NCBI GenBank assembly: GCA_965220975.1
Contig: OZ244855.1
Span: forward strand, 912,954-976,953
Direction: 5' to 3'
Length of the DNA: 64,000 bases
From: Candidatus Poriferihabitans sp.
GTDB lineage: Bacteria; Pseudomonadota; Gammaproteobacteria; Arenicellales; Poriferihabitantaceae
Positions 9,911 to 62,696 of this stretch are shown in pieces (position 1 is the first letter of the stretch; every line of letters begins with the position of its first letter). The notes under the pieces were generated by a model, which made no database searches, had not been told where the DNA came from, and saw only the letters and a program-made list of their open reading frames with translations. A program made the translations under genes and the position numbers.

Positions 9911-10028
9911 AAGGGAATTACATACGAAAGTAACGAAACAGCTGTCCGCCAGTCCGGTTGGGCAGGCGAGCTATTCCGGATCGGGGTACTGGATTTTGAC
10001 GGGCTGAAGGATGGCCTTGCGGAATTCT

Positions 10029-10194: not shown

Positions 10195-10400
10195 TTAGCC
10201 ACAAGTTTTATCTGAACGTAAATTCGGATACAGGTATTCCGGGTCCAGGCGCTTGAACAATGCATAAGCCCGGCCGTAGGCGCCGAGTTCGAGATAGCCG
10301 GTTCAGATCTCCCTGTGTCCGGGCGGCGGGTCGTTTTTCCGAGCCAGATAGCCGCCGAGCATGGCCATGGTCAATACCGTCGGATCCTGACCCAAGGGGC
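10195..10400 (-). pseudogene. C-terminal fragment of an IS4-family (Tn5-like) transposase
   Basis: The translation ...TVLTMAMLGGYLARKNDPPPGHREI*TGYLELGAYGRAYALFK resembles the Tn5-type dimerisation C-terminus (LGGF/YLxRKxDxxPG...W.G). It has an in-frame TGA and no N-terminal part. Confidence 0.5.
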
Positions 10401-10422
10401 CAGGGAACTGCCGGACTTGCCC

Positions 10423-10746
10423 GCCCGCAAAGGGCAACGGGGCAAGCCTCCGAAAACCGATGCGCATGACCTCCACCAGGCATTCCAGAACTTCGAGAAC
10501 GAAATCCTGCGATTTGCTCGTAACCCGTTCTGTCCCTACACCAATAATTCGGCTGAGCGCTTCCACAGGACGAGCAAAGTGAAACAAAAAATGTCCGGAA
10601 CCTTCCGATCCTTCAACATGGCACAAGCCTGTTGTCGAGTCACCAGCTATCTCCAAACCATGAACATGCCCGGATACAATCCTCTCACTGCAATCGAACG
10701 GGTACTCAAAGGAGAAGCAGTCGATATACTCAAGAAAAAATTGTAA
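10423..10746 (+). pseudogene. C-terminal fragment of an IS66-family transposase
   Basis: GKPPKTDAHDL...ILRFARNPFCPYTNNSAERFHRTSKVKQKMSGTFRSFNMAQACCRVTSYLQTMNMPGYNP matches the IS66 C-terminal pattern (PFTNNxAE...KVxQKISGxFRSxxGA...SYLxT). The catalytic upstream part is absent. Confidence 0.6.
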
Positions 10747-10799: not shown

Positions 10800-11125
10800 G
10801 TTTGATGGGGCGAGTAGTTACGGAGATTTCAAACGGGACGCTACCGAAATTCCCCAGCTTCTTTTTAACGGTCGGCGGGGGAAAGGTCTGCAAGGCACCT
10901 GCCGGTAGATCCACTACCGGCCCACCGTCTCCTCGACCAGAAGCTTCAGGCGACCCTCAATCTACTCCGGACCCCAGCCCTGCCCCAACAGGGCACGGAT
11001 GCGACGCCACCACGCATCGGTCAGCTTGCGGGGCACGCCCGACACCTCGTTACGGCGGGTGGCGACCTTCTCCTGGGCCTGCCGGCCGTTTGCAACACCA
11101 CAGACCCCCGGAGTGTTGCACTTCA
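10800..11125 (-). pseudogene. Internal fragment of an IS30-family transposase with in-frame stops
   Basis: PRKLTDAWWRRIRALLGQGWGPE*IEGRLKLLVEETVGR*WIYRQV resembles the IS30 segment ...GWSPEQIAGRL...ETIYRxIY. Two TAG stops lie in frame. Confidence 0.45.
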
Positions 11126-11268
11126 TAGTGGAATGGGGGCAAGAGATCTTAATGAATACGGTATCATGCAAAAATCCAGGTAAACTGCGATCTAACTGTC
11201 ATACAGTTGCTTAAAAATGTGTTAGATTTGCAACGGTTTCATAATTGATACTTATAATTCGAAATACC

Positions 11269-11856
11269 ATGTTCGATTTTCAACAACCCGTCCTCAGGAC
11301 TGATATATCTGGCATGCCGCTTGAATGGATTGATTATAGGCGTGCAGTAACCCTGATAACGCTTGATCAGGTAGCCTATACATGTGGTGATTTTGAGTTG
11401 TCGATTACTGGTGGACGAAATCGAATCACTGGTAAACGCAGTATTGTTGAAATTAACTCGATCATCGCAACTCAAGGACACTTCCGATCAACTTCCAACG
11501 ATGAATTTCTTTATTCACCACCTTTACACAACCTTCCATTATTTCAGAGAGATGGATACCTGTGCTTGTATTGTGGTGATCCGTTTCACTATAATGAACT
11601 ATCACGAGATCATGTTACACCATTTAGTCAAGGTGGTCGGGATGCATGGACAAATGTTGTAACTGCCCGTGTTCGGTGCAATAACTACAAGGCTGGGAGA
11701 ACACCGGAACAGGCCGGCATGAAGTTGCTTGCTATACCGTTTACTCCTACCCGTGCAGAATATATATATTTGCAGGGCAAACGAATTCTTGCCGATCAAA
11801 TGGAATTTTTAAAATCTCATTTTCCGCGAACTAGTCCGTTGCGTGATCGAACGTAA
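11269..11856 (+). CDS. HNH endonuclease family protein
   Basis: CLYCGDPFHYNELSRDHVTPFSQGGRDAWTNVVTARVRCNNYKAGRTPEQ is a CxxC...HxxP...N...CNxxK HNH core. Start chosen at ATG 11269; the track ORF begins at TTG 11245. Confidence 0.8.
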   Translation: MFDFQQPVLRTDISGMPLEWIDYRRAVTLITLDQVAYTCGDFELSITGGRNRITGKRSIVEINSIIATQGHFRSTSNDEFLYSPPLHNLPLFQRDGYLCLYCGDPFHYNELSRDHVTPFSQGGRDAWTNVVTARVRCNNYKAGRTPEQAGMKLLAIPFTPTRAEYIYLQGKRILADQMEFLKSHFPRTSPLRDRT

Positions 11857-19658: not shown

Positions 19659-20120
19659 GGATGATCCTCAAATGATATATGTATGTTATGAAATGACAAG
19701 TGCGACAGTATAGAATTTTCTGATCAGCTCGTTTCCCAAAAAAACTGTAACGAACGACGGATTGCTCGATTGAACAGTTCCGGTGCAGGCCGATATCCAG
19801 ATTTCGAGACTGCGGCTCATTGCCATCAAGCAACTTATTCCGACACGACGCGGACCGGGGAGGAAGTAAGCCAACCCTACTCAATGGGAATTATAGTTAA
19901 ATGACATGTCTTTTTATGACTCAATAGTAGAGCTAAACGGCAACGCCCTCCACTTGCGGATTCCCCAATCTCGTAGACCATTCAATGGCGGGCCTGCTTG
20001 CGATAGTGACAACTGACATGATTCGCATGGGTGTAACGATCTCTTGAAATTTTTACAGATTGCCCTAATAATAGATGCAGGCCTCAATCCTTTTAGCAAA
20101 TTTCACGTCCGGCTTCCTGC

Positions 20121-30282: not shown

Positions 30283-30853
30283 CCTGGATAAAAGTTTGTT
30301 CGAGACAAGTGCGGATTAAGGGTTGGCGCAAAGCAGTATTGATCAGTATATTAATATGGGAATTATATACTGAAGCAACAATTCCCCAATGATTGCGGAA
30401 ATCTGCACTGGATTGTCCTGTTTCACGATTGATATCCTGAAAAGGACGGGCGGCGCGTACCCATGGTGCCGCTTCGGTCCTGCACTGAAGTCCGTAAGAT
30501 ACCCGCAGTCGTGGATTTTTGCAATGCCGAACGTGGTTTTCCGGCGGTTCCCCGGATCATGGAGTAACACCGGTACCGTTTCCGGACTCCCCACCGGCTT
30601 CATCGACCGCCGGTGTTCCCTCCGTGGCAGGCTGGGAGGCGGGGACAGCGCTATCCGATGCAGCCCCTGCCTCTTTCAGGCAACCGGTCGCTGACGATTG
30701 TTTCCGCATTGTCCGGTAGTGGCTCAGTTTGAAAATCCGTCCTTTTCCGGTTGAAACGACTACAATGAATGGAAACTCATTCACCGAGGGGTGCGTCATG
30801 TTTCTGGGCGAAGATCATTTTTGGCAGGGATCAGGGATTGCTGTTTTTTCGTA

Positions 30854-32100: not shown

Positions 32101-32838
32101 ATGAAATTCAGAATACCCCCCCCCTCACTGGCACTCGCTATCGTCCTGATCGCATTCGGGGCGCATTCGCAGTCGCAGGAGGTCACCATCTTCCATACAT
32201 CAGGCGGCACCGGATGGAGCAACCCGAAAGCAAGCCTGAGAATCTTTGAACTAGGTGACGTTGAGACTCGTGATCTGGTTATCGAGGAACGGAACTGGCC
32301 AGCGACGGTGGCCTTCGGCGTGGGATCCGAATCCCGATGTGCATATGGCAGTGGAGATGCAACGCGGCTGGTCGGCTTCCACAACGCGAGTGGCCGCTAT
32401 ACCGGCGGCCAGCCCATCGCCACAGCCTGCACGTATTGGGGTCAGCCAAAATGCTCGAGAACATTGACCCATGATGGAAGAACATATACGGCCAATCGTG
32501 GAAGACCTCCCTGCCCACCTAATCCGCAGCAGGATACGAACAATGAGCCCACTAGCACCCATATCCCCCATACCGGCATGTTCACGGTCCGGATTTACAG
32601 CAAGGTCTGCCTGAACGGGACCGTGGGCGGAGCGGAGCGGTGCTCACAGTTTGGCCCCGGCGGACAGCGGGTTACTGCTGGCCAGTGGCTCAGCCACATC
32701 AACCAGAACGGCTACCGTGCCACCTTCGCGCCCGGGCTGAATTGCGGGCCGGCTCGCTGGCCCACGCCGGAAATGCAGACTCGAGGCCGTCCTGCCTACG
32801 CCGAGTGGTGCGACTTCACAATTAATGTTAGCCACTGA
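32101..32838 (+). CDS. Secreted 8-cysteine protein of unknown function (paralog 1, in frame)
   Basis: A GGAG sits 7 nt upstream of the ATG. The signal peptide is MKFRIPPPSLALAIVLIAFGAHS. The 245-aa protein aligns with the 59608-60436 product (FGVG..(R/K)C, FHNA(S/T)G.Y, KCSR, GRT(Y/F)TAN, (V/I)RI(Y/W)..VC, CGP.RWP, E(W/Y)CD.T(I/V).V) with all 8 Cys conserved. Confidence 0.8.
   Translation: MKFRIPPPSLALAIVLIAFGAHSQSQEVTIFHTSGGTGWSNPKASLRIFELGDVETRDLVIEERNWPATVAFGVGSESRCAYGSGDATRLVGFHNASGRYTGGQPIATACTYWGQPKCSRTLTHDGRTYTANRGRPPCPPNPQQDTNNEPTSTHIPHTGMFTVRIYSKVCLNGTVGGAERCSQFGPGGQRVTAGQWLSHINQNGYRATFAPGLNCGPARWPTPEMQTRGRPAYAEWCDFTINVSH
32116..32124 (+). repeat. Homopolymeric C9 tract at codons 6-8 of the secreted-protein gene
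   Basis: Counted directly: ATG AAA TTC AGA ATA CCC CCC CCC TCA. It encodes PPP between the start and the signal-peptide h-region and keeps the gene in frame. Confidence 0.9.
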
Positions 32839-33223: not shown

Positions 33224-33600
33224 CTAGCTCTCTTCAGCTGTCCTGTCCAGTAATCCGACGCAACCCACATAATTCCCATCGCAATGCGTAAAATTGTCAA
33301 GGTCCGGATCGCATGGACTGTTGTCCCAGACAACGACGCAACTCTCCAGAGGTGGATTGGCGACAGGGCAATCGGCGGGAGTATCGAACCGGATGATGAC
33401 ATTGTTATTAGTGATTCTATCTGGACTCCCATTGAGCAAAATCTTGGTCATCTTGACATTGCTGAGCGTGTACCGGGCTTCCGCCGTTCCGGTAGCCAAG
33501 GTCAAAGCTGCCACTGCAATGGCGATCAGTACTGTTAATTGGCGGGGGAAGGGATCTTGAAACAGGCCACCACCTGTTTGTGTTTAAACGAACGCAACAT
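33224..33600 (-). pseudogene. Candidate small secreted Cys-rich protein with a frameshifted start
   Basis: The open frame encodes ...QLTVLIAIAVAALTLATGTAEA (signal-peptide-like) followed by an 83-aa tail with 5 Cys. It has no ATG in that frame. ATG 33600 (MLRSFKHKQVVACFKIPSP) is one nt out of phase, and the frames meet at a C5 run (G5 at 33544-33548 on the plus strand). Confidence 0.35.
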
Positions 33601-33897: not shown

Positions 33898-34749
33898 GGC
33901 GTGTTAACACAATTTTCCATGAGATGTGGTATACTTGCCACCCTTGTTTTCAGTAGAAGCAATGCGGAGGAACAGGCAAGTGGAACTCACCCGGATACAG
34001 TACGAGCTCATTGCGCCGCTGCTGCCGAGGCAGCGGGGCAATGTCAGCCTCTCGAACCTGCAGGTACTCAACGCCATTCTGTAGGTGGCCGAGCACGGCT
34101 GCAAGTGGCGTGGCCTGCCGGAGCACTTCGGAAACTGGCACGCTGTCTACACGCGCATGAACCGGTGGTCGAAGAACGGCGTTCTGGACCGCGTGTTCGA
34201 GGCCCTGCAGCGGGAGCAGATGATCCGGGTCCGGGTCGAGGCCCTGAGCCTCGACAGCACCGGCATGAAGGTACATCCCGACGGTACAGGGGCTCGAAAA
34301 AAAAACGGCCCGCAGTGCATCGGCAAGTCCCGGGGCGGATGGAACACCAAACTTCATATGGTTGCCGCGGATGCCCGGACAGCCGTCGCCTTCGCGCGCT
34401 CTCCCGGCAATGCCCATGATGCCCCACAGGGACGGCAACTCCTGAAGCGGCTGGGCCGGCCGTCGAACCGGCCGGCCCTGATCATGGACCGGGCCTGCGA
34501 GGATGACGAAACCCGACAACTGGCGGTCGATCTCGGCTTCACCCCCGTGGTGCCTCCGAAGAGCAACCGCACGGCTCCCTGGAAATACGACCGGGAACTG
34601 TACAAGAGGCGCAACGAGGTCGAGCGCCTGTTCCGGCGGCTCAAGGGCTTCCGACGGGTGTTCTCGCGCTTCGAGAAACTCGATGTCATGTTCCTCGGAT
34701 TCATAGTCTTCGCACTCATCATCGATGCACTGATTAGCGTTAACACGCC
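33898..34749 (+). mobile_element. IS5-family (IS427/IS1031-like) insertion sequence, about 852 bp
   Basis: Perfect terminal inverted repeats GGCGTGTTAAC at 33898-33908 and 34739-34749. CTAG lies on both flanks (33894-33897 and 34750-34753). GC-rich relative to the surroundings. Confidence 0.85.
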
Positions 34750-34753
34750 CTAG
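33962..34753 (+). pseudogene. IS5-family DDE transposase interrupted by one in-frame TAG
   Basis: MRRNRQVELTRIQYELIAPLLP...NAIL[TAG at 34082-34084]VAEHGCKWRGLP...YKRRNEVERLFRRLKGFRRVFSRFEKLD. The stop replaces the conserved Tyr of the ILY motif. The rest of the frame is open. Confidence 0.85.
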
Positions 34754-36851: not shown

Positions 36852-38251
36852 GAGTTATGGTCGAAAGTAGTGCGTGGGCGGAAAGGGGGGTTGAAAAAAG
36901 CGGCGTAACCGGATTAACTAACAAATTTCAAAAACCGTTAACCAAGAGGTACGCCACCATGAGAGATGATAACATTATTGACTATTCAAAAATCGGCAAG
37001 TTCAAGGATGAATTGACCGCGATTCTGCGCGAGGGTGCCCGTCGGCTGCTGCAGGTGGCAGTGGAAGCCGAGCTGGGCGAATTCCTGAAGCAGTATGAAG
37101 ACCGCCGCACCGAACAGAACCTCCGGCTGGTGGTGCGCAGTGGCCATCATCCGGAGCGCTCGATCCAGACCGGGATCGGCTCGGTCCCGGTGCGGATTCC
37201 GAAGGTTCGTTCCAACGACGGCAAGCCGGTGACCTTCCGCTCGTCGGTGGTTCCGCCGTATGTGCGCAAGAGTCGCACGCTGGAGGCCTGGGTGCCCTGG
37301 CTGTACCTGAAGGGGGTCAGCACCGGCGAGATGGCCGGCGTGCTGTCCGGGCTGCTGGGGAAGCAGGCGAAGGGGTTCTCGCCGTCAGTGGTCAAGCGTC
37401 TCAAGCGGGTCTGGCTGGACGAGAGGAAGGAGTGGACGCAGCGTGACCTGAGCCAGGACCGGTGGGTGTACGTCTGGGCGGACGGGGTGTACAGCGGTCT
37501 CCGCAACGAGGAGACGAAGCTCTGCTGCCTGGTGGTGATCGGCGTGGACGACCAGGGCCGGAAGTCGATTCTGGCCATCGAGGACGGGGTGCGCGAGTCC
37601 ACCCTCAGCTGGCAGGACGTGCTGCTGGACCTGAAGAGCCGGGGCATGAACGCTCCGAAACTGGCGATCGGGGACGGTGCCATGGGGTTCTGGTCGGCAC
37701 TCGACCGGGTCTATCCGGAGGCCCGGCACCAGCGCTGCTGGGTGCACAAGACCGCCAACGTGCTGGCCGCCATGCCGAAGGCCATCCATCCCAAGGTGAA
37801 GTCGGCACTGCAGCAGATCTGGATGGCGGAGACCCGGAACCATGCCGACCGGGCCTTCGACCGTTTCCTGGCCCGCTACCAGGACAAGTATCCCAAGGCC
37901 GCAGTGAAGCTGATCGAGGATCGCAAGGAGCTGATGAACTTCTTCGACTTCCCGGCCGAGCACTGGCAGAGCATTCGTACCACCAACCCGATCGAGTCGA
38001 CCTTTGCCACGATCCGCCACCGGACCCGGACGACCCGGGGCTGCCTGAGCCGCGACACCATGCTCGACATGATGTTCAAGCTCGGCCAGTGCGCGGAATC
38101 CCGCTGGCGAAGGCTGCGCGGGTTCCGCAGGCTCGGACAGGTCATCGAGGGAGTGCAGTTCCAGGATGGAATTGAGGTACAATCAGACCAGAAAACGGTA
38201 GCCGCTGGATGAACCCCTTTCCGCCCCGCGCACTACTTTCGACCATAACTC
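36852..38251 (+). mobile_element. IS256-family insertion sequence (1,400 bp) with a 9-bp target duplication
   Basis: Imperfect IRs of about 40 bp, both starting GAGTTATGGTCGAAAGTAGTGCG (36852... and rc of ...38251). The direct repeat CTTCCGTTT lies at 36843-36851 and 38252-38260. Confidence 0.9.
36959..38212 (+). CDS. IS256-family (Mutator-like) transposase, apparently intact
   Basis: 417 aa from ATG 36959. Typical strings LREGARRLLQ, VYVWADGVY, AIGDGAMGFW, QRCWVHKTANVL and TTNPIESTFATIR. The long antisense and alternate-frame ORFs here are GC-rich shadows. Confidence 0.92.
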   Translation: MRDDNIIDYSKIGKFKDELTAILREGARRLLQVAVEAELGEFLKQYEDRRTEQNLRLVVRSGHHPERSIQTGIGSVPVRIPKVRSNDGKPVTFRSSVVPPYVRKSRTLEAWVPWLYLKGVSTGEMAGVLSGLLGKQAKGFSPSVVKRLKRVWLDERKEWTQRDLSQDRWVYVWADGVYSGLRNEETKLCCLVVIGVDDQGRKSILAIEDGVRESTLSWQDVLLDLKSRGMNAPKLAIGDGAMGFWSALDRVYPEARHQRCWVHKTANVLAAMPKAIHPKVKSALQQIWMAETRNHADRAFDRFLARYQDKYPKAAVKLIEDRKELMNFFDFPAEHWQSIRTTNPIESTFATIRHRTRTTRGCLSRDTMLDMMFKLGQCAESRWRRLRGFRRLGQVIEGVQFQDGIEVQSDQKTVAAG

Positions 38252-41306: not shown

Positions 41307-42896
41307 ATGAGTCGAAGAGCCGGTGGACGGGCAGCCCGCCATGCCTTGCGATCTGCGCCGCTTGCAGAAGATAGCAAACCAGTACAGCCAGGACAAATCG
41401 GGGGTCGGTATAAGCCGTTAACCGATGAGGCGCTAGCCAGCATCTATGATGCGATGTTGGACTTGCTGGAAAATGTCGGATTTTCCAGAGCAATACCGAG
41501 TATCATCGAGTTGGTTACCAAGGCTGGCGGAAAACTCACCAAAGATGGTCGCTTGACCTTTCCTCGAGAATTGATTGAATGGACGCTTGCAGTTTGCGCA
41601 AGGGACATTACCTTATATGGGCAAAAGCCGGAACATGACTTGTTGCTAAGCGGTAACAAAGTTTATTTTGGCACGGCGGGGGCGGCTGTCCATGTAGTTG
41701 ATGATTGGAAAACCCATCAAGAGTATCCGAATCAAGGTGCCTATCGGGAATCCACGTTGCAGGATTTGTATGATGCAGCGCGCTTGGTGGATCAACTCGA
41801 GCATGTTCATTTTTTCCAGCGTTGCATGGTTGCTCGTGATATCGAGGACCCTTGTGCAATGGATTTAAATACCACCTATGTCTCGGTCACGGGTACAACC
41901 AAACATTGTGGCTTAAGTTATGTCGATCCTGGACATGCTGTAGCTGGCCTGAAATTGCTACACTCGATAGCAGGCAGTGAAAAACAGTGGCGCGAACGTC
42001 CTTTTGCTAGCCTGTCTTGTTGTTTTGTGGTTCCGCCGATGCGATTTGCAGAAGATGCTTGCCGGGTCATGGAGGTCTGTATACGTGGAGGAATGCCGGT
42101 TTTGTTGCTGGCAGCAGGGCAGGCTGGTGCAACCAGTCCTGCATCTCTTGCTGGCGCAGTTGTCCAGGAGTGTGCAGAGTGTCTTGCTGCACTCTCAATT
42201 GTGAATCTGATGGTAGAAGGGCATCCCGCTATTTTCGGTCCTTGGCCATTTGTCTCTGACTTGCGAACTGGAGCCATGAGCGGTGGCAGTGGAGAACAAG
42301 CCGTATTGATGGCTGCCTGTGGACAGGTCGGCCGCTATCTGGATTTGCCAACCGGAATAGCGGCTGGAATGGCGGATTCCAAAACCGCAGACGCACAGTC
42401 TGGTTTCGAAAAAGCATATACGGTCACCTTGGCCGGGCACAGCGGAGCAAACCTCGTATATGAATCCGCAGGCATGCAAGCTAGCTTGCTCGGATTCGGG
42501 TTTGAAAGCATCGTGATTGACAATGACATGCTCGGGGCAATCAATCGTAGTGTTCGAGGAATCGAGGTTGATAGTGACAATCTGGCTTTGGAGACGATTG
42601 CTGATGTCTGTTTGAATGGCCCGGAACACTTTCTCGGACATCAAGCCACTCTCTCTCGGATGCAGTCCGATTATGTCTATCCGGAGATAGGGAATCGCCT
42701 AACCCCTGCTGAGTGGATGGAACTGGGTTCAAAAAATGTCAATGAGCCGGCGAGAGAAAGAGTTAAGGAAATACTGAACACTCATTTTCCCGAGCACATA
42801 TCAGAGCAACTGGATAACCATTTGCGGGCGAATTTTGAAATTCTGTTGCCAAGAGATCAAATGCGTCCGAAATGCAAACACAATATACCGGAGTGA
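41307..42896 (+). CDS. MttB-family (non-pyrrolysine) methyltransferase, candidate glycine betaine/quaternary amine:corrinoid methyltransferase
   Basis: 529 aa. The N-terminus RRAGGRAARHALRSAPL...GGRYKPLTDEAL is characteristic of the MttB superfamily. No in-frame TAG is present. Confidence 0.75.
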   Translation: MSRRAGGRAARHALRSAPLAEDSKPVQPGQIGGRYKPLTDEALASIYDAMLDLLENVGFSRAIPSIIELVTKAGGKLTKDGRLTFPRELIEWTLAVCARDITLYGQKPEHDLLLSGNKVYFGTAGAAVHVVDDWKTHQEYPNQGAYRESTLQDLYDAARLVDQLEHVHFFQRCMVARDIEDPCAMDLNTTYVSVTGTTKHCGLSYVDPGHAVAGLKLLHSIAGSEKQWRERPFASLSCCFVVPPMRFAEDACRVMEVCIRGGMPVLLLAAGQAGATSPASLAGAVVQECAECLAALSIVNLMVEGHPAIFGPWPFVSDLRTGAMSGGSGEQAVLMAACGQVGRYLDLPTGIAAGMADSKTADAQSGFEKAYTVTLAGHSGANLVYESAGMQASLLGFGFESIVIDNDMLGAINRSVRGIEVDSDNLALETIADVCLNGPEHFLGHQATLSRMQSDYVYPEIGNRLTPAEWMELGSKNVNEPARERVKEILNTHFPEHISEQLDNHLRANFEILLPRDQMRPKCKHNIPE

Positions 42897-51120: not shown

Positions 51121-51246
51121 AATAGCGTAAGTTCTACGTCTGGCTTTCCCAGCTTTCCTGTTGGATATGGGACAATTGGCAATTAATTACTTGAATGGCC
51201 TTATCATGAATGGGCTATTTAACCATGTTCCATGAGTTTAGCAGAA

Positions 51247-51590
51247 TGCGTGATATGGGATGAGGAATCCCATATCCAAATCAATCAATACCCGTGATCA
51301 GGTTAAACCATATGAGTGATTCTACAACATATCGGAACATCCATTACCGTCAATTATCTGGTTCAGCGAAGGCTTGCATGCTTTCAGGTCAGGCCGACAC
51401 CTGTCGATTCTTATGGAATCACTTCATTGCCTGGAACATGGAACATCTTCCGAAGTCGCCAACTTCCTTCTTTTTGCTTGTTTGTTGAGTTGCCAAATGT
51501 TCGAATAGCAATGAGTAGCGGATGGCGATCAGTTTGCATGTCTGAATTCATAATGCAAACATCCAAACATGGCGGGGCATGAAATTGCGA
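51247..51590 (+). pseudogene. Relic of a second TnpB element (left-end hairpin plus about 60 N-terminal codons, then decay)
   Basis: ATGCGTGATATGGGAT-GAGGA-ATCCCATATCCAAATCAA (perfect 10-bp hairpin, 51252-51276) and MSDSTTYRNIHYRQLSGSAKACMLSGQADTCRFLWNHF parallel the 5' region and the N-terminus MSDCTAYRNITYRLIPGSESKARKLAGQAGACRFVWNHF of the intact copy at 60868-62097. Confidence 0.7.
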
Positions 51591-59607: not shown

Positions 59608-60436
59608 TCAGAAGCGCACATCGACGGTGACATCGCAGTATTCGACATACCCGGGACCGCCGCGTTGCCGCCATGCCTCGGAGGGCCAGCGCCGCGGGCC
59701 GCAATGGCGGGCATGCTGAAAGGTGGCTCCATAGCCGAATAGATGTAAAATCTCTGGATTACGTATCAAGTTTCTGCCTGCGCCATCCTTGAATGAGCGA
59801 CATACCCGGCCGCCGCTAATGCAGACATTGCCCCAGATCCGGATGTTGAAGATGCCGTTGCTCGGGGTCCGGGCGATCGAGTCAGGAACAGCAGTCTGCT
59901 GTTTACGCGTCTTCCCAGTGTACTGGCCATCGCTAGGCAGGTTCTCGTCCGTCTCTTCATTGCACGTCGGATACCCGTGGTTGGCGGTGAAGGTCCTGCC
60001 CATGAAGGTCACGCTCCGCGAGCACTTGCGGGCTGTCCAGGTGGGGCAGGCGCGGGCGATGGCCCCGCCGCGGGAATAGGTGCCGGTCGCGTTGTGGAAT
60101 TCGACCGGTTGCCCCGGGCCCGGAGTGTGGGCGCACTTGAAGTCGTCTCCCACGCCGAAGGTCGTGGTCGAGCCCGCAGGACCGGGCAGGACCTCGATCT
60201 TCAGGTTCCGGACCAGGCCAGTCCAGGTTCTGCCTTGAACTGTTGGAGCGGACCGGACCAGGTCCTGATTCAGTCCGGTGACGTAAGTGGGGGCGGCCTG
60301 CAGAACCCGTGAATGGGTGATCGCGGCCTGCTGGATTTGTTGTGCCGATGCGGGCAGGGAAAGGGCCGTGCTCAGCAGAATGGCGGCGAAAGCCTTGAGA
60401 AAGGGCGGGGGGGGGGGGGGGGGTAAAGTGTGTCAT
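59608..60436 (-). CDS. Secreted 8-cysteine protein (paralog 2), out of frame at a 5' poly-C tract (phase-OFF as sequenced)
   Basis: ATG 60436, then ACA CAC TTT A, then C17. The frame encoding FLKAFAAILLSTALSLPASAQQ...GVGDDFKC...EYCDVTVDVRF* is open from 60432 to 59608 but is +1 relative to the ATG. 16 or 19 C would join them (about 275 aa). Confidence 0.7.
60407..60423. repeat. Homopolymeric G17 tract (C17 on the coding strand)
   Basis: Counted directly: 4+10+3 G across the line breaks. Lies between the start codon and the signal-peptide-coding part of the cassette gene. Confidence 0.9.
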
Positions 60437-60498: not shown

Positions 60499-60867
60499 AG
60501 ATTGATTTTCAAACCGAGCCACTACCCAGGAATGCCATATCTGGGTCGTATTTACGGGCCTCAGCAAGCATTCGAGCTAATAACAATGCCATTTCAGAAT
60601 CGTCCGTCGGCTGTCCGGCAAGTGTTTTCCATATTGGACTACCATTGACTTCCCGAAGCCCGTCAGGGTAGTTATTTCGAATACTTTCAGGAGTCTCGAA
60701 CTCCACTTGACTGCCGAGAGCTTCCCAACCAACAACCCAACCAAACAACCTTGTGCTTTATTCAAAACTTCAGGATTGATGGTCATTGCTTCATTTTCCC
60801 AGGGCATATTCTCTTTTTCAATTGAAGTATCATAAAAAACATAAGGGAATTATATACAAAAGTCACA

Positions 60868-62097
60868 TCAAGCCACTTCACATATCTTTTCACGGATCAA
60901 AGGGGTATCCAACGATAACGCCCCTCCCCGTGCAGATGCCCCAATCCCGGAGGCCAGTATGTTGCGGGCCGCGTTCAGGTCCGCGTTTTCGGCATGGCCA
61001 CAGACCACGCACCTGAACACCGCTTGCGATGTTCGATTCTCCTTGCTGACATGACCGCAGGCACTGCACGCCTGCGACGTGTAGGCCGGGTTGATCCTGA
61101 TGACCTCTGCCTTGTATTCCAGTTTCTGCTCCAGTCCGTACCAGCCGGTCTTCAGGATTTCGCGATTCAGTCCCGACCTGGCCTTTACGTTCTTGCCCGG
61201 ATTGTCGATAGTTCCCTTCGCCGATTTGGTCATGCCTTGCGTGTTCAGGTCTTCCAGCACCACCAGTCCTGCATTGTCGGCAATCTCGCGGCTGACCTGA
61301 TGCTGCCAGTTGTCCCTGGTTTTTTTTAGATGCCGGAAGCATTTCTGCAACTTGAGCCTGGTCCTGTATCTGCGTCTTGAACCCTTGACCTGTCGGGCAA
61401 GCTTTCGTTGATACCTCTTTCTCCTCGCTTCCTTTTTCGCCATATCTGGCATATGGTATAGATTGCTATTGTTATCCGTATCGACCACTGCAATTTGCCG
61501 TACATTGCGGTCAACCCCTGCCGTGTTCGGATTGTCGTTGAAGGAAACCTCAACCTCATAACAGACAACCGCATACCATTTACCCGCTTTCTTGGTGATG
61601 ACTGCTTTTACTGGCTTTCCAGTTGGATAAGGATTGCCACCCTTTCTTTGAATACGCAGCCAGCCGATCTTTGGGACATGCAGTTTGCCGTCCTGTATCT
61701 TGATCTTTTCAGGAATCGTGAACGAAGGATCATTACCATGTCTGGACTTGAACTTCGGAAAGCCCTTGCCCGACTGGAAACAGGCCTTCCACGCGTCAGA
61801 TTGATACTTGAGAACAGATCGAGTGATCGCATATGAATACTCGTCAAGCCAGTCAATCTCCTTGCGCAATTTCGTAAACTGAACACCCAGCGAAAAGAAG
61901 GATGTCTTCGGCTTGGCGGCCAACTCCGGATAACGCTTCCACAACTCCATCATTTCCTTGTTTCGCCCCAGGAAGTGATTCCAGACAAAACGGCAAGCAC
62001 CTGCCTGACCTGCAAGCTTGCGAGCTTTCGATTCCGAACCCGGAATCAGGCGGTAGGTGATGTTGCGGTATGCGGTACAATCGCTCATGCGGTTCAA
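60868..62097 (-). CDS. tnpB: TnpB (IS200/IS605-family OrfB, RuvC-like RNA-guided endonuclease family), apparently intact
   Basis: 409 aa with the RuvC triad candidates GVDRN, VLEDL and ADLNAARNI and a zinc ribbon CSACGH...CVVCGH. No tnpA lies nearby. Confidence 0.88.
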   Translation of the reverse strand: MNRMSDCTAYRNITYRLIPGSESKARKLAGQAGACRFVWNHFLGRNKEMMELWKRYPELAAKPKTSFFSLGVQFTKLRKEIDWLDEYSYAITRSVLKYQSDAWKACFQSGKGFPKFKSRHGNDPSFTIPEKIKIQDGKLHVPKIGWLRIQRKGGNPYPTGKPVKAVITKKAGKWYAVVCYEVEVSFNDNPNTAGVDRNVRQIAVVDTDNNSNLYHMPDMAKKEARRKRYQRKLARQVKGSRRRYRTRLKLQKCFRHLKKTRDNWQHQVSREIADNAGLVVLEDLNTQGMTKSAKGTIDNPGKNVKARSGLNREILKTGWYGLEQKLEYKAEVIRINPAYTSQACSACGHVSKENRTSQAVFRCVVCGHAENADLNAARNILASGIGASARGGALSLDTPLIREKICEVA

Positions 62098-62193
62098 CCT
62101 TACTCTCTTAAGTGTTGATTTGGATATAGGAGCGTTAATCCCATATCACGCATCATATGCAATTTTACAGGCATGGTCAAATGTTACTTATGT

Positions 62194-62358
62194 CCCTAAT
62201 CCTTAAATAGAAATTGCTTTATTTGGCGCAAGGCATGATGGACTGTGGATTTTGGGCTGGAATCAGAATCATCCATTGGGTGAAAAGCCAACCCGTTCGA
62301 AAACCACACCACACAAGGCGTTGGAAGTACTTTCAAATTTTCTATTTAAGGATTAGGG
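62194..62358. mobile_element. 165-bp MITE with about 22-bp TIRs and a 5-bp TSD, inserted in the right TIR of the TnpB element
   Basis: CCCTAATCCTTAAATAGAAATT (62194...) matches the rc of ...AATTTTCTATTTAAGGATTAGGG (to 62358). TATGT lies at 62189-62193 and 62359-62363. No coding capacity. Confidence 0.75.
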
Positions 62359-62696
62359 TATGTATATAATTCCCAAACATAACCTCTGGACTTGCCGAAC
62401 TATCCGTATTGCAAGATTGGTTCAAGAACAATATCTGCGAGATTCTTCGTGAGACTGCAATTCATCAGAAGGATCTGAAGCAATGCGATTACCCGCCCCC
62501 ATAAGACTAAAACGACTGTTATTTCAGTATTCTCCTGCTTCAATTCGTTGGCAATAAGGGTGTTAGCTACGTCTTGGTTGATGCTGGAACATTTCAATCT
62601 TGTTTTTCAAGCAAGCAATTGTCGCTTCACCTGCGCAAGAGGGGCAAGATGGTTATCGAAATACAAAACAGGCCAAGACCAGGTTTGAAAACGAGA

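Follow-up and report, generated by a model that had tools for sequence, protein, structure and literature searches.

How can an intact tnpB gene come to lie between terminal inverted repeats and a target-site duplication? The question is raised by a 64,000-nt stretch of the genome of Candidatus Poriferihabitans sp. (assembly GCA_965220975.1, contig OZ244855.1, positions 912,954 to 976,953), hereafter the window, where, at the hemH-cbiX locus, an element spanning 60845-62374 carries tnpB as its sole gene and has the perfect 8-bp repeat AAACATAA on both sides. TnpB, the protein from which Cas12 derives, is a compact nuclease for genome editing, and its known biology rests on IS605 and IS607 transposons, which excise scarlessly next to a fixed transposon-associated motif (TAM). 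Insertion sequences (IS) of the IS200/IS605 type lack inverted repeats and insert without duplicating the target, at sites adjoining a fixed motif of 4-5 nt (PMC13565253), and neither inverted repeats nor duplications are found in IS607 (PMC6188088, PMC13565253).

The answer favoured by the comparisons described below, with a probability of about 0.8, is that the element is a non-autonomous transposon of the IS1595 family, whose single gene, tnpB, stands instead of the transposase gene. Such an element would be moved in trans, and the estimate includes the proposed model of its guide RNA (omega-RNA).

The tnpB element, its ends and its sibling copies

The first-pass annotation, made from the letters of the window alone, described an intact TnpB with the RuvC D/E/D residues and a zinc ribbon. 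This is borne out by the open reading frame (ORF), by its Pfam matches (HTH_OrfB_IS605, OrfB_IS605, Cas12f1-like_TNB) and by the alignment of 21 sequences (the window protein and 20 homologues), in which D193, E279, D370 and the cysteines C341, C344, C360, C363 are invariant. Solved structures of ISDra2 TnpB align with the window protein over the full length. Thus, the RuvC nuclease has the intact catalytic residues characteristic of OMEGA systems (obligate mobile element-guided activity), and the ratio of nonsynonymous to synonymous substitution rates, 0.15-0.24 among five tnpB paralogues, indicates that the protein is under selection.

The sequence GGGAATTATATACA occurs at 60845-60858 (plus strand) and at 62361-62374 (minus strand), with 14 complementary positions out of 14. 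The left-end repeat (left and right being given in the tnpB orientation) is split between nucleotides 16 and 17 by a nested miniature inverted-repeat transposable element (MITE) of 165 bp, and after its removal the two ends, GGGAATTATATACATAAGTAACAT and GGGAATTATATACAAAAGTCACAT, are identical at 22 of 24 positions, as had been annotated. The direct repeat stands directly at both ends, again in agreement with the annotation, and the short spacing between the tnpB stop codon and the end of the element is confirmed as well, being 23 nt by our count and not 22 nt. Since the MITE sits inside the left inverted repeat, the window copy is probably no longer mobile, though its tnpB gene is intact.

Exact-protein look-ups recovered five further copies of the element, three in the same genome (L002, L003 and L115; ENA ERZ25072152) and two in a sister genome (L004 and L200; ERZ25070844). 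All five have the same ends directly against tnpB, and the flanking 8-mers differ from copy to copy (Table 1). The first-pass annotation had considered that other copies might have different flanks and no duplication; the flanks do differ, yet three of the five siblings have perfect 8-bp duplications. Moreover, L003 has the same variant, AAAGGTTGACA, in the inner part of both ends, as would be expected for a transposase-binding site kept symmetrical. The earlier interpretation of the inverted ends and the 8-bp duplication as a footprint of a DDE-type transposase is thereby supported by the siblings, and also by the end match to the IS1595 family described in the next section. Two neighbouring features of these copies may be mentioned: a second copy of the 165-bp MITE ends about 60 nt upstream of the left end of L115 (at 2385), and a large Cas9-like gene (L004:6735-7221; 1660 aa, Csx12 / Cas9_C_2 Pfam matches) starts about 2.5 kb downstream of the tnpB element in the sister genome.

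Ends of the IS1595 family and their spread among TnpB relatives

A scan for the end pattern GGGAATTAYATAYNNAAGYNACAT over one genome per GTDB species, in which about two chance matches are expected by our estimate, found it in more than 110 stretches at least. The labels of metagenome-assembled genomes (MAGs) among the matches listed include Ruegeria, Paracoccaceae, Poribacteria, Entotheonella, Binatia, Chloroflexi, Dadabacteria, Pseudohongiella, Arenicellales and the archaeon Nitrosopumilus, a set that, judged from the MAG names only, we take to be a marine sponge-microbiome assemblage. Paired patterns bound elements of 0.28-5.9 kb, and the majority of the pairs listed have perfect 8-bp duplications. 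The larger elements mostly encode a protein of 311-355 aa adjoining one end, and the versions of this protein that were scanned match PF12762 (DDE_Tnp_IS1595) in five cases out of five and PF12760 (the IS1595 zinc ribbon) in four out of five. The cargo of these transposase-bearing elements comprises N6/N4 DNA methylases, methylase-HNH fusions and other genes.

The consensus end of the elements with IS1595 transposases, GGGAATTATATACYWAAGTMACATTT, differs from the right end of the window element at one of the first 24 positions, and the individual elements L059 and L096, both with such transposases, match it at 23 of 24. As for the duplications, those of the tnpB elements are AT-rich, above all in positions 1-3. 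Inverted repeats starting with GGG, an AT-rich duplication of 8 bp and subgroups with passenger genes are the features of the IS1595 family (Siguier, Gagnevin and Chandler 2009, as cited in PMC8101967), and 8-bp AT-rich duplications have been shown experimentally for its member ISEc69 (PMC7835479). The window element shares the GGG-starting repeats, which are 24-26 nt long, the duplication and the use of the same ends that elsewhere surround a transposase and cargo, at least as far as the family is described in the citing paper; it differs in having no DDE_Tnp_IS1595 transposase of its own, tnpB being its sole gene. Since the ends match those of transposase-bearing elements at 23 of 24 positions and the duplication has the same length, the element is of the IS1595 type, and, since it encodes no transposase, it is filed as a non-autonomous derivative of this family and not as an IS. 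A nuclease normally residing in IS605-type elements appears here to have changed its vehicle.

These data also bear on a trivial explanation, according to which an ordinary solo tnpB just happens to have the inverted ends and AAACATAA around it. The flanks are indeed AT-rich, and a 14-nt inverted repeat or an 8-mer repeat could each arise by chance alone, but the window contains five matches to the 14-mer end with at most two mismatches against 0.3 expected, independent copies have the same ends with different duplications, and the ends agree at 23 of 24 positions with IS1595-transposase elements from other phyla. Refuted already by the multiple copies, chance may be practically dismissed. Elements with such ends have been found with tnpB, with IS1595 transposases and as MITEs, so that a search for the ends with and without the gene, which the first-pass annotation had in view, gave all these forms; its proposal of a capture by a transposon with inverted repeats or by a MITE is essentially right, with the vehicle now named.

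The distribution of this packaging was assessed by a TnpB-alignment scan of the Joint Genome Institute (JGI) metagenomes, which yielded 80 loci, combined with a detector of inverted repeats and 8-bp duplications around the gene. Homologues with about 38-60% identity have ends of the GGGAATTATAT, GGGACTTATAT or GGGGCTTATAT type with flanking 8-mers, and such ends enclose nearly all TnpB relatives as far as about 38% identity; at about 44 loci with identity of 36% or less, the detector found nothing comparable. Among 20 curated elements (38-100% identity, length 1266-1931 bp), the duplication matches at 8 of 8 positions in 13 elements and at 7 of 8 in four. The packaged tnpB genes form a single clade in the neighbour-joining tree. 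One of its members, L118, from a different genome of 4.9 Mb and with 60% identity, has divergent, clearly related ends and a perfect duplication, TACCTAAA. Since elements with as little as about 38% identity have retained the repeats directly against tnpB, with fresh 8-bp duplications at different sites, the mobile unit is the one bounded by the repeats. In a phage-like contig (L116/L117, 2422-3748), the genes for the large terminase and the portal protein have a tnpB gene with 66% identity between them; this tnpB has a 5' hairpin and no recognisable inverted repeats or duplication.

The hairpin upstream of tnpB is of interest here, as it was initially considered to be a subterminal structure similar to those of IS605. 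It is indeed present both in the window element and in the decayed copy near 51.2-51.5 kb, but the subterminal role is not supported, as the hairpin follows the predicted promoter and is missing in most relatives. In particular, a promoter scan of 60800-62400 found a single promoter-like site, TTGACC-17-TATGAT, whose -10 box is closely followed by the hairpin. The region between the inverted repeat and the hairpin differs in L002-L004 and L115, where a pair of -35 and -10 boxes is readable by eye in the same place. The stem of the L118 hairpin is changed on both sides (GTGACGGGAA/TTCCCGTCAC) and is still complementary. In most members of the clade there is no hairpin, the left end of 42-90 nt comprising the inverted repeat, a promoter-like sequence and the start codon, and the inner part of the inverted repeat is often itself TTGACA in such members. 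Being located downstream of the -10 box and absent from most of the clade, the hairpin is probably a structure in the 5' untranslated region (UTR) of one subclade, at the 5' end of the tnpB mRNA.

One could still suppose that a tnpB-only IS200/IS605 unit has been inserted into a pre-existing IS1595-type MITE, that it retains ends of its own, the upstream hairpin belonging to the left one, and that a Y1 TnpA moves it in trans, the repeats being a bystander shell. The conserved hairpin upstream of tnpB and the phage relative, with the hairpin and the gene and devoid of recognisable repeats, are consistent with this, and some original capture event of such a kind must have occurred. On the other hand, the right inverted repeat starts at the stop codon and leaves no room for an IS605-type right end, the left ends of most clade members are short and hairpin-less, the hairpin is downstream of the -10 box, no other gene fits in elements of 1.27-1.45 kb, and the repeats stay directly against tnpB down to about 38% identity, with fresh duplications at different sites. 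A present-day nested insertion seems quite improbable, and a recent nesting of an IS605 unit within a MITE does not agree with the packaging common to the entire clade.

A separate group of TnpBs also has ends of this type. Proteins from Nitrosopumilus (L070, L031) are about 26% identical to the window protein and fall outside the whole packaged clade in the tree, yet their genes are enclosed by the same IS1595-type ends, GGGAATTA..., and flanked by the duplications TCATGTGG (8/8) and CTGCATGT/CTGCATGC (7/8). Since these TnpBs lie outside the clade, the IS1595-type vehicle took up TnpB at least twice, and the archaeal case seems to imply an independent capture and the cross-domain spread of the vehicle. 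Horizontal spread is suggested by the recurrence of one end sequence in many bacterial phyla and one archaeal genus. TnpB relatives in many other marine microbes, probably associated with sponges, are packaged in the same way.

A putative omega-RNA at the right end

The guide RNAs of IS605 and IS607 TnpBs and of Fanzors (reRNAs, right-end RNAs) read through the transposon end (PMC10711439). By analogy, a scaffold and a guide segment can be predicted at the right end of the window element (Table 1), and the 3' region of tnpB was analyzed accordingly.

In nine of ten paralogue pairs, the last 76 codons have a lower synonymous divergence than the first 330, the respective values being 0.09-0.35 and 0.43-0.88 in the four pairs that include the window copy. 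The extra constraint on synonymous sites thus appears to be located exactly where TnpB guide RNAs are encoded. Covariation was estimated on the 20-sequence alignment of the last 150-200 nt, using a hand-drawn structure, 500 shuffles and slid controls. In this structure 87% of cells are paired and compensatory changes occur in 10 of 19 pairs; no shuffle out of 500 is as high, and the slid controls drop sharply. Most of the covariation is in the nested helices. The candidate pseudoknot helix is paired in 86% of cells and has two covarying pairs, and a documented pseudoknot in ISXfa1 TnpB also involves nucleotides just 5' of the guide (positions -130 and -3; PMC10711439).

Further evidence comes from loci without tnpB. 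A covariance model of the 3' region, R1, has matches accompanied by the end sequence at such loci, mostly covering model positions from about 40 to 158, that is, approximately from the 5' strand of the candidate pseudoknot to the end of the element. MITEs of 277 bp with IS1595-type ends keep the last 110 nt or so of the tnpB region. Perfect 8-bp duplications, AATAGAAT, TTGTGTTG and AAAGGAAA, flank three of them; the MITEs of L007 and L093 have no duplication, perhaps due to recombination between copies, and the match in L010 is at the contig start, its left end being unseen. The lowered synonymous divergence, the compensatory changes and the 277-bp MITEs all speak for a putative omega-RNA whose end would lie in the inverted repeat, and the same three lines fit the earlier suggestion that this RNA lies mostly within the 3' coding region.

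The mobilisation in trans, presumably by an IS1595-family DDE transposase, is suggested by the identity of the ends. The only physical link between such a transposase and this tnpB lineage is L104:1-853, a decayed chimera from an Arenicellales MAG (OZ241374.1) with TnpB 79% identical to that of the window. Here, the frame of an IS1595 transposase (approximately residues 200-290) runs directly into tnpB codons 217-406, which are followed by the right inverted repeat. The chimera may have arisen by deletion, either from an element formerly holding both genes or from two nested elements. With this exception, no IS1595 transposase occurs within 3 kb of any examined clade member with such ends, and no transposase was seen near the truncated TnpBs P0081 and P0089, which were looked up for chimeras similar to L104.

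Two other families were considered as partners and rejected. A decayed fragment of the IS66 type (10315-10746) follows the solo end at 9913, and, as it appears to have its own GTAA-type end near 10826, the adjacency is explained by nesting of junk elements. A copy of IS256 is present at 36852-38251, but its 38-nt ends are unrelated. The IS256 family also makes duplications of 8-9 bp.

A number of observations weigh against the proposed interpretation. There is no IS1595 transposase in the window or near any tnpB locus of the source and sister genomes. A protein search with the 80-aa transposase fragment of L104 gave short fragments only and is uninformative on the source contig (3.37 Mb); that with the full L057 transposase gave about 8000 matches, of which none of the 120 listed is on the contigs of 3,368,333 or 3,218,294 bp, a result that is again uninformative and not negative. 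The candidate pseudoknot has a U-U mismatch in the subgroup of the window element itself and few independent covariation events. In single-sequence folding, the predicted structure of the 3' RNA is no more stable than shuffles (z = -0.09). The omega-RNA families of Rfam have no match at either gathering or permissive thresholds. Finally, in flank logos of 20 elements, neither the duplication nor the 12 nt preceding it contains a conserved TAM-like motif. At position -1 before the left-end duplication, G is present in 13 of the 20 tnpB elements (binomial p ~2e-4, uncorrected for the number of positions examined), and this bias is not seen in autonomous IS1595 elements with the same ends; it may reflect a TAM-like preference for a single base, or be noise.

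Some of these observations would be accounted for if the vehicle is indeed IS1595 and TnpB is a mere passenger or an exapted protein, engaged in host regulation or defence or simply hitch-hiking, with no omega-RNA at the right end. No TAM signal was found, and thermodynamically there is nothing exceptional about the 3' fold. Methylases and other unrelated cargo are present in IS1595 elements with the same ends, and the break left by DDE cut-and-paste can already be repaired by recombination, making the benefit of TnpB unclear (PMC13565253). However, the catalytic residues are invariant, unlike those of the dead TnpBs in known exapted lineages; the synonymous constraint falls exactly at the expected omega-RNA, and the paired regions covary; the MITEs keep the RNA region together with the ends and still transpose; and the association is old and clade-wide, an unrelated Nitrosopumilus TnpB being packaged alike. 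We therefore regard a passenger role as unlikely and retain the reading with an omega-RNA, in which the following sequence of events can be proposed.

An IS1595-family DDE transposase would recognise the ends and mobilise the element in trans. The tnpB gene would be transcribed from the promoter just inside the left end, and an omega-RNA of about 105 nt would derive from the last third of the gene and run through the right-end inverted repeat, whose last 6 nt might form the 3' strand of the pseudoknot. Reading on into the target duplication and the flanking DNA would provide the guide. The TnpB-RNA complex might then cut unoccupied or rejoined insertion sites, with recombination restoring the element, as for IS605/IS607 TnpB; this step is speculative, since no TAM could be identified. 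As the guide would start with a variable 8-bp duplication and there is no fixed TAM, the usual role in cutting empty sites is not obviously available, and, for this reason, the functional part is the weakest one of the model.

The family has left other traces in the window (Table 1). The decayed 5' fragment is 70% identical to the element over 201 nt and 49% over 67 aa (E 5e-12). The solo ends at 30358 and 9913 match all conserved positions of the end consensus, with the chance expectation in the window estimated as ~4e-6; the former had been annotated as a third, weaker copy of the end and turns out to be a genuine solo end. The sequence 33266-33277 was tried as its partner and rejected as a chance match, having 10 matching nt only and no duplication. 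The decayed fragments and solo ends imply that the genome has been colonised by this family repeatedly.

Table 1. Coordinates of the tnpB element and its parts, of related traces in the window, and of related loci elsewhere
Feature	Position or loci	Strand	Description
tnpB coding sequence	60868-62088	minus	406 aa from ATG; RuvC D193/E279/D370 and CxxC...CxxC zinc finger intact
Right-end terminal inverted repeat (right in tnpB orientation)	60845-60868	plus	GGGAATTATATACAAAAGTCACAT read inward; inner end touches the tnpB stop codon
Left-end terminal inverted repeat, outer 16 nt	62359-62374	minus	
Left-end inverted repeat, inner part	62181-62193	minus	AGTAACAT, with one copy of the 5-bp duplication of the MITE
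Target-site duplication, right-end copy	60837-60844		AAACATAA; directly abuts the inverted repeat; identical to 62375-62382
Target-site duplication, left-end copy	62375-62382		AAACATAA; directly abuts the left end
Nested MITE, 165 bp	62194-62358		Perfect 20-nt inverted repeats CCCTAATCCTTAAATAGAAA; 5-bp duplication TATGT
Sigma-70-like promoter	62152-62180	minus	TTGACC-17 nt-TATGAT; directed into tnpB; 10/12 matches
Hairpin with 9-bp stem	62123-62147	minus	GAUAUGGGA-UUAACGC-UCCUAUAUC; starts 4 nt after the -10 box
Putative omega-RNA scaffold	60845-60950	minus	Nested stem-loop 60891-60932; inferred from sequence comparison
Candidate pseudoknot	60943-60948 with 60845-60850		GGGAUU pairs with the last 6 nt of the inverted repeat
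Predicted guide segment	60825-60844	minus	Covers the target duplication and adjacent DNA; based on an analogy to the reRNAs of IS605/IS607 TnpB and Fanzor
Decayed 5' fragment, second copy	51217-51480	plus	Promoter region, hairpin, first ~67 tnpB codons; inverted repeat degenerate
Decayed 3' fragment, third copy	19886-20011	minus	Omega-like region and end; R1 27.1 bits, E 2e-6; match ends ...UAUAAUUCCC at 19886
Solo IS1595-type end	9913-9934	plus	GGGAATTACATACGAAAGTAAC; edge of a G+C-rich patch of IS fragments
Solo IS1595-type end	30358-30379	plus	GGGAATTATATACTGAAGCAAC; start of a G+C-rich island; no convincing partner end
Sibling L004, flanking 8-mers			AAAGTATT; match 8/8
Sibling L115, flanking 8-mers			ATTAAATA; match 8/8
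Sibling L200, flanking 8-mers			AAAATAAT; match 8/8
Sibling L002, flanking 8-mers			AAAATGTG / AAAATGTA; match 7/8
Sibling L003, flanking 8-mers			AAAAAAAG / AAAAACAA; match 6/8
R1-matched loci (Paracoccaceae, Silicimonas MAGs)	L007, L010, L049, L085, L093, L103		277-bp MITEs in five of them
Nitrosopumilus loci	L070, L020, L027, L015, L045 in MAG OZ244137.1; L031 in OZ244651.1		

The window also contains genes and elements of other kinds. ORFs at 32101-32838 (plus strand) and 59608-60153 (minus strand) are G+C-rich paralogues (36% identity, E 3e-32) with no Pfam match, the longer one having an apparent N-terminal signal peptide when inspected by eye; both lie in G+C-rich, foreign-looking islands of a host with about 46% G+C, and 59608-60153 is about 700 bp from the tnpB element. 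The above-mentioned IS256-type copy (36852-38251) is a complete G+C-rich Transposase_mut element with 38-nt inverted repeats, 34085-34753 is a G+C-rich ORF of an IS4/IS5-type DDE_Tnp_1 transposase, and the IS66 fragment (10315-10746) is G+C-rich and C-terminal. Just past the patch of IS fragments that follows the solo end at 9913, there is a free-standing 203-aa HNH endonuclease ORF (11245-11856, plus strand). Finally, a match to PYLIS_3, the pyrrolysine insertion sequence of mttB, at 42369-42468 (plus strand; 48.9 bits, above the Rfam gathering score) suggests an MttB-family methyltransferase gene there.

Relation to known systems and biological meaning

The element resembles the IS1341 group of IS200/IS605 in having a single tnpB with clear homology to ISDra2 TnpB and an omega-RNA that probably overlaps the 3' end of the gene. 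It differs from this group in the 24-nt repeats (22/24) and the 8-bp duplication, which are also present in 19 further elements; in the lack of a fixed TAM abutting the left end in the 20 elements of the clade; and in the lack of Y1 TnpA subterminal hairpins at both ends, the right end being the inverted repeat itself. Thus, while the protein is a bona fide TnpB, the element departs from IS200/IS605 in three defining features.

The association of TnpB with DDE transposases as such is not new, and the idea of an undescribed TnpB vehicle has to be narrowed accordingly. DDE-associated TnpB branches with symmetrical ends, DDE-1 to DDE-6, have been described by Altae-Tran et al. 2023 (PMC10691335), who name IS630; among the solo TnpBs of that survey, some have the ends of transposase-bearing elements, and a mobilisation in trans is presumed for them; ISL2 and IS1031 are named as partner families in a review (PMC13565253). 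As in the window clade, a prokaryotic TnpB lies there within symmetrical ends, with the 3' end of tnpB near one of them. IS630, ISL2 and IS1031, and not IS1595, are the partners given there and in the review, and TnpB is co-encoded in those branches with a DDE transposase, whereas in the window clade this is essentially never the case. The clade may still coincide with one of the branches DDE-1 to DDE-6. Full-text literature searches, with the supplement of the 2023 survey outside their reach, yielded no report linking TnpB with IS1595, and it is in this specific partner that the novelty would consist.

Similar short derivatives have been described in Haloquadratum, where palindrome-associated transposable elements (PATEs) and MITEs of IS605-type elements are non-coding and keep the ends and a part of the 3' region of tnpB (PMC3119063). 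The 277-bp MITEs differ from PATEs in having IS1595 inverted repeats and 8-bp duplications and not palindromic IS605-type ends.

A parallel is provided by Fanzor1 and Fanzor2* (Bao and Jurka 2013, PMC3627910; Yoon et al. 2023, PMC10711439), that is, TnpB-family nucleases encoded in elements with inverted repeats that make duplications and are often non-autonomous. The scaffold of the Fanzor guide RNA has been proposed to take in the inverted repeat and the duplication, the RNA being read past the duplication (PMC10711439). The window case differs in being prokaryotic, in the TnpB-sized protein and in the variable sequence of the 8-bp duplication, and, because of this variability, the duplication cannot be a fixed scaffold element in the window clade.

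Taken as a whole, these comparisons allow for a more far-reaching scenario, which we put forward tentatively and regard as less likely than not. A large and old TnpB clade would have switched for good from an IS605-type to an IS1595-type vehicle; the inverted repeat bound by the transposase would have come to serve as the omega-RNA's 3' end, forming a strand of the pseudoknot; the guide would start with the variable duplication and follow an unusual or relaxed TAM logic; MITEs carrying the omega-RNA only would have arisen; and the Nitrosopumilus case would be an independent capture.

The finding is broader than the first-pass annotation, working from one sequence, could show, and structurally well supported, and it should be of interest for researchers of OMEGA systems. 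An end sequence common to elements in many bacterial phyla and one archaeal genus is now documented. Since the transposase is encoded elsewhere, gene-neighbourhood surveys would misfile the clade as ordinary solo TnpBs. A clade of catalytically intact TnpBs in DDE-type elements raises the question of how RNA-guided homing can work without a fixed TAM, and its transposon end would have to serve both the transposase and the guide RNA. For the eukaryotic Fanzor systems, the clade offers a natural model among prokaryotes, and, if the switch of the TnpB vehicle was indeed permanent, it would be their prokaryotic counterpart.

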